Made by a program: the position numbers and the translations under genes
Shown here: in pieces, positions 84-34,700 of the stretch
How positions within the stretch are numbered: position 1 is the first letter of the stretch
Layout: every line of letters starts with the position of its first letter
UHGV virus genome: UHGV-0304565
From: a virus
Length of the DNA stretch: 36,690 nt
Direction: 5' to 3' (one strand)
The notes under the pieces: model-generated
What the model saw: only the letters and a program-made list of their open reading frames with translations
The model's database searches: none
What the model was told of the DNA's origin: nothing

Positions 84-98
84 AAAACAATTTGTTTT
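84..98. promoter_or_regulatory. Palindromic element AAAACAA-T-TTGTTTT (early-region operator-like site, copy 1)
   Basis: Perfect 7-bp inverted repeat with 1-bp spacer, read directly; member of a recurring family. Confidence 0.45.
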
Positions 99-116
99 CT
101 ACCTTTTGTTGATTGA

Positions 117-148
117 GATAATAAGCCACATAAGAAAACAAATTGTTT
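117..148 (+). promoter_or_regulatory. Putative early promoter: -10 GATAAT (117-122) plus palindrome AAAACAA-A-TTGTTT (135-148)
   Basis: -10-like hexamer 13 nt upstream of the palindrome, same spacing as at 2621-2655, 3104-3139 and 4773-4805; directly upstream of SD taggag and ATG 160. Confidence 0.45.
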
Positions 149-3524: not shown

Positions 3525-3587
3525 TATTGTAAGTACATACTTACGGTTATAAAATAGAAAAATAACCAAGACACTACGGAGAGTGAA

Positions 3588-10507: not shown

Positions 10508-10552
10508 AAACCTCTTTCCTTAGTGCCTTTTGTATGTTATTTGGCTATTATA

Positions 10553-10572
10553 ATAAGTAAGTGATTACTTAG
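10553..10572. promoter_or_regulatory. ATAAGTAA-family motif with inverted repeat (AGTAA-gtga-TTACT) in the divergent intergenic region
   Basis: Read directly; adjacent TATAAT at 10548-10553. Confidence 0.4.
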
Positions 10573-12825: not shown

Positions 12826-13716
12826 ATGGCAGATATCATCATCAAACGCTACCGCCCTGAAGAGTTTCCGCGTCATCTGGACTTTCTGGAGCGAATGACT
12901 GTCACAAAGGGAACTGTAGAGGACTGGCACGCTCTTAAGTCGCTTCACTACAAAACAGACGGCAAACCTTTCGCGCCAACATACTATCGCTGCGAACTGG
13001 ATGACCGTCTGGTGGGCGTCGTGGTTATGGCTTACCCGAAACTTCTGCTGGCACCTCGCCATCGCATGTTTCCTAAGTTGAAACCAACCACCAATACCAC
13101 CGTGGCTAACCAGTACTGGGGCCGGTACGTGAATAACAACTTTGCGGTGATCAGCCGCTCAGTTGTGGATACTCAGTACCGTGGCGTAGGCGTCTCTTAT
13201 CGAATGATTAACCTGGTTAGCAGGATGCATGACCGGCCAATCATTGAGATCCAGTCATCGATGAGCAAATACAATCCCTTCGCCATGAAAGCAGGGTTTA
13301 AGTTCATCCGCCCTGAGCGACCGAAGAGCTATGAAAGTGCACTGCGTGTGTTCCAGCGCCATTTCCGCTCCGACCCGGGTGATAACGAGGCGATCGTCAA
13401 AGAGTTGTTCGCTATGAGCGAGTCTCGTCGTCGCCGTGCACTGCGTGATCTGGTGGCGGACTACCACAAAAACAGTTCCCTGGCAAAAGCTGGGCGGAAT
13501 CGTGGCACGACGATTCAGGACATTGCCGACAGTCTGGTGGACGAGGCCAGCATTGTGAAGCTGCTCAAGGACATTCACAACCTGAGCTTTACGTCTCCGT
13601 TGTATGGTGTGTATCGAAACCCTGACTTTGGTCGTCGACTGCCTGACACGCTGCCACTGCTGGCATTCGACAAACAACCTTTGGATAAACCGTTAGAAAT
13701 TGCTTTACCGGCATAA
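12826..13716 (+). CDS. GNAT-like acyltransferase-fold protein with C-terminal extension
   Basis: GNAT motif A-like QYRGVGVSYRMINLV and motif B-like NPFAMKAGFKF. ORF track starts at GTG 12817 overlapping the previous stop; ATG 12826 used. Confidence 0.5.
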   Translation: MADIIIKRYRPEEFPRHLDFLERMTVTKGTVEDWHALKSLHYKTDGKPFAPTYYRCELDDRLVGVVVMAYPKLLLAPRHRMFPKLKPTTNTTVANQYWGRYVNNNFAVISRSVVDTQYRGVGVSYRMINLVSRMHDRPIIEIQSSMSKYNPFAMKAGFKFIRPERPKSYESALRVFQRHFRSDPGDNEAIVKELFAMSESRRRRALRDLVADYHKNSSLAKAGRNRGTTIQDIADSLVDEASIVKLLKDIHNLSFTSPLYGVYRNPDFGRRLPDTLPLLAFDKQPLDKPLEIALPA

Positions 13717-13725
13717 GGATTTGCC

Positions 13726-13992
13726 ATGACGTTAACCGATAAACAAAAGGACATCATCAAAACGCTCAATCTCGGTTATGAGCGAGGTCATCTACTTGAC
13801 CTGGACGAATTGCTTGAAGTTTTGCCGTACAAGACAACCAAGCAAAGTATCCAGTTCTCAATTCGCGCTCTGATAAAAAAGGGGCTGGTGGAGAAAGGGC
13901 ATACGCGCCAACGCAGTGACAATCGCTATCACCGCCGAACTCTTGGGTTAACTACTTTAGGTCGAGCCAAAGCGAAGTTACTGGTGATGTAA
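13726..13992 (+). CDS. Small basic protein (88 aa), possible winged-helix DNA-binding regulator
   Basis: SD aagga 7 nt upstream; segment SIQFSIRALIKKGLVEKG resembles MarR/PadR-type recognition helices (pattern judgement). Confidence 0.45.
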   Translation: MTLTDKQKDIIKTLNLGYERGHLLDLDELLEVLPYKTTKQSIQFSIRALIKKGLVEKGHTRQRSDNRYHRRTLGLTTLGRAKAKLLVM

Positions 13993-14016
13993 TCGGTCTG
14001 GGAGCTTATTTAAAGA

Positions 14017-14071
14017 CCTGCTTCTGTATATATAAATAATAAGTAACTTATTAAATATATACGGAAGCAGG
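14017..14071. promoter_or_regulatory. Long near-perfect palindrome (about 18-bp arms) centred on AATAAGTAACTTATT
   Basis: Left arm cctgcttctgtatatata (14017-14034) against right arm tatatacggaagcagg (14056-14071), one mismatch. Confidence 0.5.
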
Positions 14072-14108
14072 CTTCGTAAGACATGCCAGACCTAATTAAA
14101 CACCCCAG

Positions 14109-14148
14109 AAAACAAGTTGGTTAGCAGATGCAGTAAACAAGTTGTTTT
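14109..14148. promoter_or_regulatory. Two tandem AAAACAA-G-TTGkTT palindromes upstream of the terminase genes
   Basis: Copies at 14109-14122 and 14134-14148, same family as the early-region operators. Confidence 0.45.
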
Positions 14149-14187
14149 AGAGCGCATGGACGCGCTCTGTGTGTTTTAGAGGGATCT

Positions 14188-14820
14188 ATGACGGTCGAAA
14201 AAGACGAGGTAAAAACTCGCCTGACACCAGCGGAGTGGGCCGAAGCTGAAGCCAAATGGACGTCAGGCGAATATACACTCTCAAAGCTGGAGGAAGAGTA
14301 CGGCATTCGTCGTGAAACACTCTCCAGACATTTCAAAAAGCGAGGATTAGAGAAAGGCGCGGACTCTGTTGGGAAGATGGTTCGTGAGTCTCTTAAATCT
14401 GACGCAGAGCTTCGCGCTAAAGCCCGTGCGGAAAAGATAGAAGAACGTCGTACACGTTATGACGGCTGGGCGTATGCGTTGGGGCAGATGGTGATGGTCG
14501 AAGTCACTACGGCCAAACGTGAGGGTAAGCCTTTAGGGGCGATTGAGGATTCTCTCAAGAGCTTACAGAGAGCCAGTAATACCCTTGCAAAATGCTTTGA
14601 AGTTTCGTCCAAAGCATTGGGCATGGATCATGCGGAAAATGACGAGGAAGAAATTCCGAACCTGGTATTTGGTGAGCTTACGCCTTCCCAGGTGGCGAAA
14701 TTACGTCAGGAAGACGACGAGCCTGAAATCATCGATGACGAATTGCTTGAGACGTTGGAAGAAGAAACTCTAAGCGAATTTGATGCGACAGATGATGGAA
14801 GTGAAGGGGAGGACGAATAA
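14188..14820 (+). CDS. terS: Terminase small subunit (putative)
   Basis: Position immediately upstream of terL with 1-nt stop/start overlap; N-terminal HTH-like segment; acidic C-terminus. Confidence 0.6.
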   Translation: MTVEKDEVKTRLTPAEWAEAEAKWTSGEYTLSKLEEEYGIRRETLSRHFKKRGLEKGADSVGKMVRESLKSDAELRAKARAEKIEERRTRYDGWAYALGQMVMVEVTTAKREGKPLGAIEDSLKSLQRASNTLAKCFEVSSKALGMDHAENDEEEIPNLVFGELTPSQVAKLRQEDDEPEIIDDELLETLEEETLSEFDATDDGSEGEDE

Positions 14821-16076
14821 TGGCAATCCCGTCCTCGCTCAGTCTTGTGCAACTGCATTCTGGACAGATGAAAGTCTTCCAGTCTCCGCATCGATTTAAA
14901 GTTGTTTGTGCTGGTCGACGCTGGGGAAAATCCCGGTTGTCGATCTCCACTATTATTCGTGCGGCGGCAAAGGAAAAAAAGCAAAGGGTCTGGTATGTCG
15001 CTCCTACTTACCAGATGGCTCGCCAGATTTTGTGGGACGATCTACAGGAAGTTCTGCCTCGTAAGTGGGTTAGGAAAAAGAACGACACCACGATGACAAT
15101 CGTGTTGAAGAACGGTTCGGAGATCGCCCTCAAAGGTGCTGATAAGCCTGACACTCTGCGCGGCGTAGCGTTGCATTTTGTAGTGCTTGATGAATTTCAG
15201 GATATGAAGGCTGACACCTGGTACAAGGTGTTACGACCTACTCTTTCATCGACACGCGGCGGTGCACTGATCATTGGTACGCCAAAAGGCTTCTCGGAAT
15301 TTCACAAACTGTGGACTATAGGCCAGAACGTAGAGCTGCAAAGAAAGGGACAGTGGAAGAGCTGGCAGTTTGTAACTGCCGATTCTCCGTTTGTGCCTAC
15401 GGCGGAAATTGAAGCTGCTAAGAACGATATGGACCCCAAATCGTTCGCTCAGGAGTACCTGGCCAGCTTTGAGAACATGTCCGGGCGCGTTTACTACCCG
15501 TTCGATCGTAACGTGCATGTAAAACCGCTTCAGTTCAACCCTCGGTTGCCTATATGGGTAGGGCAGGACTTCAACATTGACCCGATGTCTTCAGTAATTT
15601 TGCAACCTCAGCCAAATGGTGAGCTATGGGCAATTGATGAATTGGTGCTCTTTTCCTCTAACACGGCAGAAGTTTGTGATGAGCTTGAGAGACGCTTCTG
15701 GCGCTGGAAATCACAGGTAACGGTATTTCCAGATCCGGCAGGTGCTTATCGCCAACATGCTCGTGGGGAGTCTGACGTAGACATATTCAAAGAGAAGGGA
15801 TTCTTACGTGTCGATTATTCGAAAAAGCACCCGCCAATTGCGGATCGTGTTAATGCTGTTAACCGAATGCTGATGTCCGCATCTGGAGATATCCGGCTGT
15901 ATATCGATCCGAAGTGCAAGCATTTGATTGATTCACTGGAAAAAGTCATCTACAAGCCTGGAACACGAGATATGGATAAGACAGGTGGCATTGAGCATAG
16001 TGCAGACGCATTGGGCTATCCAGTACATCGTAGGTATCCAGTCAAAAACCGTGTTATTCTTGGTGGTTCTCGGTAG
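14820..16076 (+). CDS. terL: Terminase large subunit
   Basis: P-loop GRRWGKS, Walker B HFVVLDEF, C-terminal nuclease-like region; position before portal. Confidence 0.85.
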   Translation: MAIPSSLSLVQLHSGQMKVFQSPHRFKVVCAGRRWGKSRLSISTIIRAAAKEKKQRVWYVAPTYQMARQILWDDLQEVLPRKWVRKKNDTTMTIVLKNGSEIALKGADKPDTLRGVALHFVVLDEFQDMKADTWYKVLRPTLSSTRGGALIIGTPKGFSEFHKLWTIGQNVELQRKGQWKSWQFVTADSPFVPTAEIEAAKNDMDPKSFAQEYLASFENMSGRVYYPFDRNVHVKPLQFNPRLPIWVGQDFNIDPMSSVILQPQPNGELWAIDELVLFSSNTAEVCDELERRFWRWKSQVTVFPDPAGAYRQHARGESDVDIFKEKGFLRVDYSKKHPPIADRVNAVNRMLMSASGDIRLYIDPKCKHLIDSLEKVIYKPGTRDMDKTGGIEHSADALGYPVHRRYPVKNRVILGGSR

Positions 16077-23073: not shown

Positions 23074-23091
23074 AGTAAGTATATACTTACT
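23074..23091. promoter_or_regulatory. Perfect 18-bp palindrome AGTAAGTATATACTTACT (ATAAGTAA family)
   Basis: Read directly; 50 nt upstream of the major tail gene start. Confidence 0.4.
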
Positions 23092-29575: not shown

Positions 29576-29596
29576 ATAAGTAAGTACTAATTTAAT
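29576..29596. promoter_or_regulatory. ATAAGTAAGTACTAATTTAAT motif (late-region family)
   Basis: 15 of 19 positions match 35929-35949. Confidence 0.4.
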
Positions 29597-31138: not shown

Positions 31139-31719
31139 TTCATGTGCAGCTTGGCGGCCCTATGGCCAAACATTTTGGCCGCCACTGGCATCTAAAGGTG
31201 CGTAATACAAAACAGGCTCTGGATTTAATTGAGGCTAACAAGCCTGGGTTTAAAGCATGGATGAAGCGCAACATCAAAACCTATGACAGATACCACATCC
31301 AGATCACCAATAAACAGGGTCACAAGTGGTCTGTGGACGAGAGTGAATATCAGATGATGGGGCAGTCTGACAACATTGCCAAAATACGCATTACCCCTGT
31401 TCCGCGAGGGAGCGGCGGATCTGCTTTTGGGTGGTTTCAGACGGTAGTAGGGGCCGCTTTGTTGGTTGTATCGGCGGTAATGATGCCTGCTTTAGCACCT
31501 CTCGGTTTGTCACTGATGATGGGCGGTATATCACAAATCATATCGCCGCAAGCCACTAACGAAAGTGTGAGGCAAGCGGATAATTCGAACTCATATTATT
31601 TCGACGGCCCTCAAAATACAGAAAACCAGGGAAACCCAGTACAACTTATCTACGGCGAGGAAATTCTGGTTGGCTCACAGGTTGTGAGTTCTTCAATCAC
31701 GATTGACCAGCTAATGTAA
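31126..31719 (+). CDS. I: Tail assembly protein I-like
   Basis: GTG start with SD gggag, overlaps the end of K; position between K and J; hydrophobic segment mid-protein. Confidence 0.6.
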   Translation: MSELVHVQLGGPMAKHFGRHWHLKVRNTKQALDLIEANKPGFKAWMKRNIKTYDRYHIQITNKQGHKWSVDESEYQMMGQSDNIAKIRITPVPRGSGGSAFGWFQTVVGAALLVVSAVMMPALAPLGLSLMMGGISQIISPQATNESVRQADNSNSYYFDGPQNTENQGNPVQLIYGEEILVGSQVVSSSITIDQLM

Positions 31720-31737: not shown

Positions 31738-34700
31738 ATGGAACAGTTCAAGAAGAAAAAGTTACCGCTGTTTATTGCCGGTGCGGGTGGTAAAAAAAGC
31801 AGCAAAAGCTCTAGCCGTACACCGGTTGAAGCCGACGATACCGTAAATTCTCGTGCAATGGCCGCTATCCTCGATCTTCTTGGGGAAGGTGTAATTGGCG
31901 GCTTGGTAAATGGCGCAAGATCTATTTTTATCGACGATCTGCCGATTGTAAATGAAGACGGTTCCTCCAACTTCAGCGGAATCACATGGGATTTTCGCGA
32001 CGGTTCGCAAGACCAGACTCCAATGTCTGGCTTTGATTTTGTCGAAACGCCTAAATCCGTCAATATCCAGTTAAAAAAAACACATTATGTAACGGTTTCA
32101 ATCGATAACGATGAAGCTGATCGGGTTCGTGTCATCATGAAGTTTCCTTCTTTGCGAAGCATAGATAAAAAAACTGGTGACACGAACGGTACAACCGTTG
32201 AGTACAAGTTCCAGATAGCAAATGGCGACTCAACATTTGTAGATGTGGTCGCAGAAGGTGAAAAAAGCGTTGGCATTAAGCTAACTGCAAAGAAGACAGG
32301 TGTTTATTACCGTAGCTATGAGCTGAAGCTGTCTAAGCCTGGACGCGCGTACAAGGTTCGTGTAGTCCGTATTACCGATGATAACAGCAGCCAGTATCTC
32401 TATAACGATACATGGGTGGACTCAATAGGTGAGATTGTAGATACACCGATGAACTACCCAAACTCTGTGCTGGTGGGGCTGAAGGTTAATTCTGAGCAAT
32501 TTGGTAGCACCATGCCATCTCGTTCGTATTTGGTGCGTGGATTAAAAATTCGCGTGCCGTCAAACTACAACGAGGCCAGCAACACTTATGATGGTGTATG
32601 GGATGGCACTTTTAAGCTGTTGTCTTCTTCAAACCCTGCGTGGATTCTCTTTGATTTGCTTACCAATGCTCGATATGGCCTTGGTCAGTATGTGTCGGAA
32701 TCTATGATTGACCTCGGCCAGCTATACCAGATCGGTCGATATTGTGACGAAGAGGTTGATGATGGCTTTGGTGGTAAAGAGAAACGCTTTGCAATCAATA
32801 CGCAGATCACCAGTCGACAGGACGCATACCGATTAATTCAGGATATTGCCGGTGCATTCCGCGGTATGGTGTTTTGGGCTGGTGGCATGGTTAACATCAT
32901 GCAGGATAGTCCATCAGATCCGGTAATGATGTTTACCAACTCCAACGTCAAAGATGGACTGTTTACCTATAAAGGTTCTGCGCGTAAAGATCGCCCATCC
33001 GTTGCGCTCGTAACCTACAACAACAAGGAGGACGGTTATAAGCAAAACATCGAGTACGTTGAAGATCAGGACGCAATGCGCCGTTATGGTGAGCGTAAAA
33101 CAGAAGTCGTAGCATTTGGATGTACAAGCCGAGGCCAGGCTCACCGAGTTGGTTTGTGGCTTTTGTATACCGCCAGAATGGAGTCGGATGTAATTACATT
33201 TACTGCCGGTTTAGACGCCTCATTTCTGATGCCCGGTGAAACCGTTCTGATTCAGAACAAATATCGTGCAGGTAAACGTAACTCCGGTCGAATTGTGGAG
33301 TTTACCAAAAACAGCATCACTCTCGATGCGCCTGTGTCGTTAGCTAAAAGCGGCAGCTTTATTCGGATATTGAATCAGGAAGGCAAAATCGTTGAACGCG
33401 ATGTTCTTGAAACTGGCGAAAACATAACAAAGGTTACGTTTTCAAAAGCTCTGTCGTCAGCGGAAACGCCTGTTTTGAACGGTGTCTGGACAATTACAGA
33501 ACCAGATCTCGAACCTATGCGCGTTCGCATCGTTAACATCGCGCAGGGGGAAACGCCGGGTAGCTTTGACATCACCGCTGTTGAGAACAATCCGTCTAAA
33601 TATGAGGCGATTGACAATGGTGCAACGCTTATCCCGCAGAATACGACGGTATTGGACCCGACTTACTCCAAGCCGTCTAATTTGCAAATCACCGAAGGGA
33701 CTTATCTCTCAAGCCCAGGCAACCTGTCAGTAAAACTGACTGCAACATGGGAAGGGAAATCTCCAGAGTATTGGATCAGTTGGCGACGTTCTGATGAAAA
33801 CAATGTATCGAACTGGCAATCGGCGCGTGTAACCGAAGAGCAATACGAAATCGTTAATGTTGCGGAGAATGGACGCTACGACTTCCAGCTGTATGCGGTT
33901 TCATTCAACGGTAAAAAAACAGAGATTATCAGTACCGTTTATCAGGTGCTGGGCACAATGACACCGCCAGATGCTCCAACGTCATTAACGGCCGTTGGAG
34001 ACTATCGTAATGTGATACTGAATTGGGTTAATCCAGATTCGGTAGACCTTGATCACATTAATGTTTACGCATCCCAGACCAACAATCTGGATACAGCGAA
34101 ACTGATCGCAGAGTCTGCAAGCACCACCTTTACACATGCTGGTCTTGGGGATAGCGAAACGTGGTATTACTGGGTTCGAGCATCGAACAAGCGAGGTATG
34201 TTAAGTCCTCCGAACTCAAACTTGGGGACAGAGGCGACAACTCGCGATGTACTGTCGTTCCTGACAGGCAAAATTACGTCTTCTGAACTTGGCCAGGCTT
34301 TACTTGAGGAAATCGACTCAAAAGTATCTCAGGAGGCGGTGGATTCCATCTATGAACAGATGGATGAAAGTCTGAAAAGCCTTGATGACAAGTTTACAGA
34401 GACAGATCGGCGGCTTGAAGAAGCTCAAAACGATCTTAAAACGGATGTTTCCAGTACTGTAAGCAAGGTGGAAGACGCTCTTAAGGAAGTTGAAAACTCT
34501 AACGCTGCTTTAATTCAGTTGCAGGAAACTGTATCAGAGCAGGGCAAAGCTGTAGCTGGAGCTGTTGAGGCGGCAAATGCAGCACTTGACAATTCATCGG
34601 CTTTAATCGCGGAGGAACGTGAAGCACGAGTTGAGGGTGACTTGGCAAACGCGAAAGAAATTGAGGCGATGAAGTCAACTGTAGATAGCAGTTTAGCCAC

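Follow-up and report, generated by a model that had tools for sequence, protein, structure and literature searches.

A probable terminator-type palindrome, candidate operators and a leader hairpin between a winged-helix gene and terS in an SSU5-type phage-plasmid

How transcription passes, or fails to pass, into the packaging genes of SSU5/pHCM2-type phage-plasmids is the question raised by a 195-bp spacer in the virus genome UHGV-0304565. The stretch analysed here, 36,690 nucleotides long and referred to in the following as the window, belongs to a phage-plasmid of this type: it is 99.8% identical to CP053388.1 ('Escherichia phage CMS-2020a'), and the identity of the region to other relatives is 98% for pLF82/Cyrano, 87.5% for Salmonella phage SSU5 and about 79% for Klebsiella phage-plasmids. 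The spacer separates the gene of a small winged-helix-type (wHTH) protein from terS, the gene of the terminase small subunit, and holds a long palindrome, two 13-mers of a dispersed motif and a small GC hairpin. An initial annotation, made from the sequence alone, had named it a compound control region, which is a fair description. On balance, and with considerable reserve, the spacer is taken to be a junction between two transcription units, in which a terminator-type hairpin at the end of one operon is followed by operators and a leader hairpin controlling the packaging genes.

The palindrome, called copy A in the following, had been listed in the initial annotation as a long inverted repeat upstream of terS; this was borne out, with arm coordinates displaced by 1-2 nt. 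Its core is formed by two nested pairs of arms, as defined by a repeat finder. The outer pair (14017-14033 and 14055-14071) is 17 nt long and 94% complementary, with one mismatch, and the inner pair (14029-14044 and 14046-14061) is 16 nt long and 88% complementary, with its centre at 14045 within AATAAGTAACTTATT (14038-14052); a 2-nt indel in the TA run offsets the registers of the two pairs by one. The core is in turn enclosed by a more external inverted repeat, GGTCTGG (from 13995) and CCAGACC (14086-14092), so that a compound palindrome of about 100 bp results. As + strand RNA, the core folds at -30.5 kcal/mol, against -8.5 +/- 2.3 kcal/mol for shuffled sequences (z = -9.5, none of 200 shuffles being as good), and the region 13993-14100, external arms included, forms a hairpin of about 100 nt at -48.4 kcal/mol (z = -9.9). 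The stem has a GC-rich base of 10 bp, extended by AT pairs, and in this respect it is the stable stem-loop of an intrinsic terminator. An Rfam search of 13500-14500 returned sub-threshold matches to miRNA precursors alone, which reflect a generic long hairpin. The length of the TA run within the arms (14027-14034 and 14055-14061) varies by +/-2 nt among the otherwise identical relatives L020, L027, L035 and L057, the arms behaving like a small microsatellite.

A scan of the whole Cyrano genome with the arm sequences detected two further copies, at 31159-31211 and 78084-78138, both lying outside the window. The same three copies are found at syntenic places in SSU5, where the paralogues occupy 33458-33513 and 78304-78360, and further copies of all three types were found in IMG/VR contigs by means of a 15-mer arm scan, the matches of which were mostly chance ones in unrelated contigs. 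In Cyrano the copies share identical outer arms, CCTGCTTCTGTATATA ... TATATACRGAAGCAGG, and differ in their AT-rich centres; the arms CCTGCTTCYGTATATA...TATATACRGAAGCAGG are identical in all three copies of both Cyrano and SSU5. Copies A, B and C do not share the sequence of their outer stems, and a CCCAGAC motif recurs 3' of every copy. Folds of about 110 nt reach -45.5 kcal/mol for copy B and -38.8 kcal/mol for copy C.

The position of the copies relative to genes is nearly constant. Each begins shortly past the end of a + strand operon, the distance from the final stop codon being 23-24 nt in Cyrano, 22-27 nt in SSU5 and 24 nt in the window; the preceding gene is the wHTH gene for copy A, the last gene of the parA operon for copy B (24 nt behind it) and an adenine methyltransferase gene for copy C. 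On the transcribed strand, the 9 nt located 3' of the hairpin contain 5-7 T in copy B, 5-6 in copy C and 3-4 in copy A. Copy B is thus followed by a U tract of the kind found in intrinsic terminators (TCTTTTTCT in SSU5, or TCTTTTAAA) and copy C by a partial one (CTTTTTAAG or CTGTTTTAT), and in the window copy A has only the weak tract CTTCGTAAG at this place. Behind copy A of pCAV1099-111 stands a run of T8, and behind that of the loci L075 and L078 one of T5 (CTTTTT in L078).

Published transcript levels are available for the Cyrano host LF82 (RNA-seq of Misson et al., PMC9928086, S1 table). The genes of the parA operon, CYRAN_28-30, show log2 values of 5.2-10.8, and the next gene, CYRAN_31, shows values of 2.3-4.2: across copy B, which sits between CYRAN_30 and CYRAN_31, the transcript falls up to about 200-fold. 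In the same data, RNA of CYRAN_123, corresponding to the wHTH gene at 13726-13992, lies 2-3 log2 units above that of the upstream gene CYRAN_122 in 6 of 10 lysogen samples; either a promoter of its own or an RNA segment stabilised by a 3' hairpin may be responsible for this excess.

Relatives were collected by scanning IMG/VR with a TerS alignment (79 loci) and by a scan of genome contigs with TerS (4 loci). Two of the IMG/VR loci, L077 and L078, whose TerS is 68-69% identical, carry a 297-aa gene on the minus strand between the wHTH gene and terS (426-1319 in L077). Here the wHTH stop codon is still followed directly by the palindrome, which has come to lie between convergent genes and 1.1 kb from terS, and an operator-like site and a hairpin with a GGA loop remain directly upstream of terS. 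This separation indicates that the palindrome goes with the end of the unit upstream, and that operator and leader belong to the beginning of the terS unit. Since terS keeps both in these loci without a co-directional upstream gene, it must own a promoter.

Among the roles that had been proposed for the palindrome from the sequence, namely terminator, regulator site or part of a packaging recognition region, the terminator is the one best fitted by the three operon-end copies, the T runs of copies B and C, the transcript drop at copy B and the arrangement in L077 and L078. Once transcribed, copy A (core 14017-14071, outer arms 13995-14092) would end, or pause, the transcript of the ParB-like/ABC-ATPase/wHTH operon and protect its 3' end; because of the poor U tract, it would probably act in this lineage as a leaky terminator rather than as a tight one.

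Several observations weigh against this reading. A U tract of 7-9 nt, mostly U, as expected for an intrinsic terminator, is missing at copy A in the window, and a consensus terminator scan made no call on any of the three copies, the stems being too long for the model used by the tool, which counts a maximum of 20 pairs and requires a loop of 3-8 nt. Transcript levels fall by just 1-1.8 log2 units across copy A, both flanking genes being near background in lysogens. A sigma-70 consensus promoter was not found in 13993-14187, so that the terS promoter would have to be weak, activator-dependent or atypical. Pair counts over 25 unique palindrome sequences gave a covariation term of -0.08, nearly all pairs being invariant; for this reason covariation is no evidence for or against an RNA structure. 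The arms are almost invariant over these 25 sequences, with flanks diverging by about 50%, and their sequence is conserved across the three paralogues and across Escherichia, Salmonella, Klebsiella and Yersinia, beyond what a plain terminator needs. In pCAV1099-111, finally, the copies are altered in concert and carry a lineage-specific box, CCTTGCTCTGGATAGTATTTA, at syntenic places. Arm conservation and concerted change, taken together, call for a sequence-specific partner or for gene conversion.

Such a partner would exist if the palindromes were primarily DNA sites for a phage-plasmid protein, either centromere-like, ParB-loading sites or sites for the wHTH protein, with the hairpin as a by-product of two-fold symmetry. 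This, the main rival reading, appears unlikely, in spite of the arms hardly varying from copy to copy and from lineage to lineage and of the shared box of pCAV1099-111. The location of copy B right behind the parA operon, and of copy A directly behind an operon that includes two genes of the ParB family, would agree with it, as would the distribution of the three copies roughly in thirds round the circle, the constant adjacency of the wHTH gene and the situation in distant relatives, where homologous arms about 100 nt apart (TerS identity 53-59%) or unrelated inverted repeats of 22-33 nt (TerS identity 33-40%) are located in the same place. Binding, however, predicts neither the fixed distance of 22-27 nt from a stop codon nor the one-sided T runs of copies B and C; slippage in the TA run shifts the spacing of the arms by +/-2 bp without loss of the element; the recognition helix of the wHTH protein is nearly unchanged where the arms are unrelated in sequence; and in the wHTH-terS spacer of the lytic Nickieviruses nothing comparable was found, though the ParB/ABC/wHTH/terS module is kept. 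A combined view, held at a similarly low level of confidence, is that the three palindromes form a set of cis elements read by one protein (of the ParB family, a ParA partner or the wHTH protein), which would couple termination or read-through at operon ends with segregation of the plasmid or condensation of DNA; in that case copy A would decide entry into the packaging operon. Less probable again is that the hairpins do not terminate at all, being structures for RNase III-type processing or 3' stabilisation, and that terS is reached by read-through from the promoter of the ParB operon (TATAAT at 10549-10554). Stems of at least 25 bp, the lack of a U tract at copy A, the undetected promoter consensus upstream of terS and the excess of wHTH RNA over CYRAN_122, which fits a protected 3' segment, point in this direction. 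They are countered by the steep fall across copy B, by the T runs 3' of copies B and C and by L077 and L078, in which terS has no co-directional upstream gene and yet keeps operator and leader.

The least favoured of these explanations is that copy A is, or contains, a site of recognition or cleavage by the terminase (cos, pac or the boundary of a direct terminal repeat, DTR), and the proposal of a packaging recognition region is weakened. Its attraction lies in the position of copy A immediately upstream of terS and terL, in an order resembling cosN-cosB-Nu1, and in the distant relative Nican01, a Pseudomonas phage with the same ParB/ABC/wHTH/terS/terL module, for which 'DTR (long)' is reported, without coordinates (PMC11256456); by analogy, fixed ends are possible in the SSU5-type family. 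The only hint of an actual packaging site comes from the SSU5 record JQ965645.1, obtained from virion DNA, which ends with ...ACTTATTA and starts with AATATATACGG / AATATATACGGAAGCAGG, so that the break falls in the right half of the palindrome, at a distance of 8-9 nt from its dyad. However, the SSU5 copies read ...TAAGTGACTTATTA / AATATATACGG (copy A) and ...TAAGTTACTTATTA / TTATTTATACGG (copy B), the record being cut at the slash, which is exactly where the likeness of A and B ends; a contig end induced by the repeat explains the break at least as well as a terminus does. To judge from these sequences, the start of the record is probably an assembly artefact and not a genome end, and the SSU5 reference start point should not be taken as a physical end. 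The palindrome is, moreover, present in three copies per genome in both Cyrano and SSU5, two of them far from the packaging genes, and is not linked to terS and terL: in L077 and L078 it stays with the wHTH gene, 1.1 kb from terS, and no counterpart was found in the Nickievirus spacer. The repeats resembling cosB belong to an 18-site family of transcription type, one of them standing alone in the Klebsiella types, and none of the metagenomic contigs behind the loci of the IMG/VR TerS scan ends at the palindrome. All this considered, the palindrome is probably not a DNA-packaging site.

Other candidates were evaluated and discarded. The start of the Cyrano record, 1 nt away from the SSU5 break, was rejected as an independent terminus, since it represents a new annotation of plasmid pLF82 that was compared with SSU5, and its opening point seems to have been chosen to fit that record. 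Rhizobium phage B1VFA, which has a 3.6-kb DTR, is absent among the TerS matches and the start of its record is unlike the module, so it was not retained as a relative; a search of the literature for SSU5-type termini found no mapping paper. The mode of packaging cannot be deduced from TerL either, as this protein is only about 25% identical to T5-like, Jersey-like and other phages outside its own family. A protelomerase target of the telRL type, a palindrome of about 56 bp, was rejected as well: the replicons are circular, pHCM2, pCAV1099-111 and other related PLSDB plasmids being deposited as such, and no protelomerase is annotated in the full records of Cyrano, pCAV1099-111 and SSU5, a homology search for the enzyme not having been made. 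Finally, the arm CTTCCGTATA resembles CTTCGTATA of loxP, and a lox-like recombination site was dismissed on account of the spacer, which is 20-100 bp and not 6-8 bp.

Downstream of the palindrome, the preferred reading of the spacer as a junction rests on the two 13-mers and on the leader of terS. Two tandem operator-type sites had been noticed in the initial annotation, and both were confirmed as AAACAA-N-TTGTTT elements. The second operator copy was made by a 25-bp tandem duplication (14106-14122 versus 14131-14147): relatives of the Klebsiella, pCAV and pVH1 types have a single copy, which in the first two is the proximal site, and the E. coli and SSU5 types are duplicated. The motif is strongly over-represented. 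In the window, 19 strand-hits were found at up to 2 mismatches, versus 2.2 expected, a number reached by none of 100 shuffles; Cyrano contains 18 sites at up to 1 mismatch, versus 0.3 expected. With a single exception, the latter are intergenic and precede a start codon by 13-40 nt; the site at 97940 instead falls just inside the annotated 5' end of CYRAN_110. In addition to early genes, the Cyrano 13-mers precede parA, the helicase gene, the gene of CYRAN_47 (annotated as dimethylbenzimidazole phosphoribosyltransferase), nrdB and terS; the left flank of the distal terS 13-mer, TTAAACAC..CAGAAAAC, is common to the Cyrano sites before CYRAN_47, nrdB and the helicase gene. The terS 13-mer is kept in relatives down to 58% TerS identity. 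The suggestion that an early-type operator also gates the packaging genes therefore holds in so far as the sites are true and conserved members of the motif family; the motif is not specific for early genes, as shown by its other locations.

The relation between motif and promoter can be observed at other sites. Five early sites lie exactly 10-11 nt 3' of a -10 element, GATAAT or TATTAT, which places the motif around +1 to +15; pairs of -10 element and AGA-AAACAA-N-TTGTTT operator occur in the window at 136, 2643, 3127 and 4793, two of them with an upstream TGn (extended type). Three other sites are placed so that the TTGTTT half could be a -35 element, the spacing having been determined by hand for 93114 only, and the same half could serve as -35 element at the window sites 85 and 4029. 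The occurrence of the motif in two different positions relative to promoters indicates a DNA operator and not an RNA element. At terS, where the promoter consensus went undetected, the relation of operator and promoter is extrapolated from these other sites: a dimer of a phage-plasmid repressor, bound at one or both 13-mers, would block the entry of RNA polymerase into terS. Homologues of CYRAN_45, CYRAN_98 and CYRAN_114 and the 88-aa wHTH protein are candidate binders of the 13-mers on the basis of their annotation. Several genes of the early region (window 85-148, 1450, 2643, 3127, 4029 and 4793) have a promoter each.

A further element, not included in the initial annotation, is a small hairpin with its tail (14148-14179). 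It lies immediately upstream of the Shine-Dalgarno sequence of terS, and a T-rich run (14170-14177) directly follows its stem. In 16 diverse leaders, double changes keep pairing in four of the six pairs of the stem 14150-14155 / 14162-14167; the covariation score, 0.424, is reached by none of 500 shuffles (0.257), and slid controls score far lower. The loop contains an invariant GGA (14158-14160), presented as AAGGAU in SSU5 and as AUGGAC in the window, and another GGA (14182-14184) follows 24 nt downstream within the Shine-Dalgarno sequence. The T-rich tail is specific to lineages, extending to T8-T9 in the distant loci L090-L094, in which the leader is preceded by a promoter, TTGACA-17-TACAGT, and by a different palindrome. 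Comparison of these sequences indicates that the layout of promoter/operator, leader hairpin and terS is conserved. The hairpin may provide a control point after initiation, either by attenuation or by binding of a translational regulator. The coordinates of all these features, along with those of the flanking genes, are reported in Table 1.

Table 1. Features of the wHTH-terS spacer and of the flanking genes, in window coordinates
Feature	Position	Strand	Remarks
wHTH protein gene, 88 aa	13726-13992	+	last gene of the ParB-like/ABC-ATPase/MK0520-like operon
Left outer arm GGTCTGGGAG of the ~100-bp compound palindrome	13995-14004		pairs with 14086-14092; kept in relatives
Core 55-bp near-perfect palindrome, copy A	14017-14071	+	repeat finder and fold; begins 24 nt past the stop codon 13990-13992
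Right outer arm CCAGACC	14086-14092		repeat finder and fold
Distal candidate operator AGA-AAACAAGTTGGTT	14107-14122 (13-mer 14110-14122)		one mismatch, in the right half
Proximal candidate operator AGT-AAACAAGTTGTTT	14132-14147 (13-mer 14135-14147)		perfect 13-mer
terS leader hairpin, stem GAGCGC/GCGCTC extended to 8 bp, loop AUGGAC	14148-14169	+	terminator-like match in a scan
Shine-Dalgarno sequence AGAGGGA, containing the second GGA	14178-14184	+	invariant in all aligned relatives
terS-like gene, 210 aa, N-terminal helix-turn-helix, acidic C-terminus	14188-14820	+	phrog_867 'DNA binding domain'; annotated in Cyrano as terminase small subunit
terL, Terminase_6N / Terminase_3 type	14820-16076	+	start overlapped by 1 nt by the terS-like gene

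Parts of this arrangement have counterparts in known systems. T4-type phages contain repeated regulatory cassettes made up of a stem-loop plus a promoter (PeSL). The palindromes share with these, and with intrinsic terminators, a stable GC-clamped hairpin shortly past a stop codon, a T run (copies B and C), and the recurrence of the same sequence at several operon boundaries with the promoter/operator module of the next unit after it. They differ from intrinsic terminators in being far longer, with a core of 25 or more bp and about 100 nt when the outer arms are included, in their AT-rich centre, in the near absence of a U tract at copy A and in the conservation of the arms across genera. Phage P1 has dispersed operators for its C1 repressor, and about 18 copies of a short motif, spread over a phage-plasmid of about 108 kb at replication, partition, early and morphogenesis promoters, are a parallel; the motif is here a perfect 13-bp palindrome, whereas the P1 operator is an asymmetric 17-mer. 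A resemblance to lambda cos, with its order of cosN, the cosB R sites and Nu1, is given by a symmetric element, short repeats and a small terminase gene within about 170 bp, but here the symmetric element is in triplicate, the repeats are of transcription type and TerL is of the Terminase_6N and not of the GpA type. N15, a linear plasmid-prophage with dispersed palindromic centromeres, likewise has palindromes scattered through a phage-plasmid, partly among phage genes and one of them by the partition operon; in contrast, the palindromes described here have a fixed place behind stop codons and one-sided T runs, and are carried by circular plasmids. In leaders targeted by CsrA/RsmA-type regulators, a GGA in a hairpin loop is combined with a GGA in the Shine-Dalgarno sequence. 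The short GC stem, the GGA loop and the second GGA in the Shine-Dalgarno sequence of terS recall these leaders; the likeness is one of sequence, and the loop in the window is AUGGAC.

No description of gene regulation in SSU5/pHCM2/pMT1-type phage-plasmids was found in the searchable literature. These phage-plasmids, which carry resistance genes, are frequent in Salmonella Typhi, Yersinia pestis, E. coli, Klebsiella and Enterobacter. The three operon-end hairpins, the network of about 18 operator sites reaching terS, the leader with a GGA loop and a second palindromic motif, described below, make up a first cis-regulatory map for them. Each element is of an ordinary kind, placed in an uncharacterised and medically relevant phage-plasmid family; the value of the map is practical, for annotation and for the design of induction and packaging experiments, rather than conceptual.

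As to the neighbouring genes, the 88-aa wHTH protein matches phrog_900 over its full length and shows a weak similarity to LexA_DNA_bind. Its gene is syntenic across all relatives, the lytic Nickievirus included, and is preceded on the same strand by two ParB-family genes and by genes for an ABC ATPase and an MK0520-like protein. Sequence searches found no relatives of solved structure for either TerS or the 88-aa protein. Upstream of the ParB-like operon, the hexamer at 10549-10554 is a perfect -10 element and is directly followed by a TAAGT-N4-ACTTA site; the operon whose end is marked by the palindrome probably has its regulated promoter in this region, 10549-10571.

TAAGT-N4-ACTTA defines the second palindromic family, represented in Cyrano by 8 sites, versus 0.2 expected, and in the window by 3530-3543, 10558-10571 and 23076-23089. 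Its members are found ahead of sub-operons of structural genes (for tail and tail fibre), of the ParB operon and of certain replication genes. At its centre (TAAGT-N1-ACTTA), the 55-bp palindrome has half-sites of this family at another spacing. Noted together with the family, ATAAGTAAGT occurs at 8 exact sites in Cyrano, versus 0.15 expected, and in the window at 10553-10562 and 29576-29585.

Further repeats were observed in the more distant relatives. In the IMG/VR loci L090-L094 (TerS 33-40% identical), the inverted repeats of 22-33 nt lie about 100 nt apart, around positions 1150-1500; in L090 two tandem copies of TTGTCATTTTGAACTTATGC face three inverted ones. The repeats of these loci are followed by a consensus sigma-70 promoter overlapped by the palindrome AGTCAGCGCTGACT, a leader of about 40 nt, a T8-T9 terminator and terS, an arrangement of promoter, leader and terminator which resembles lambda PR'-tR'. 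In pCAV1099-111, the same repeat of about 55 nt, CCCCTTAATTAAAAGATTTTAAAAAGAGCTTTAAATACTATCYRGAGCMAGG, ends two genes (56252-56330 and 108520-108575; loci L222 and L223), namely the final gene of the parA operon and the methyltransferase gene, which both take their terminal codons, stop codon included, from it.

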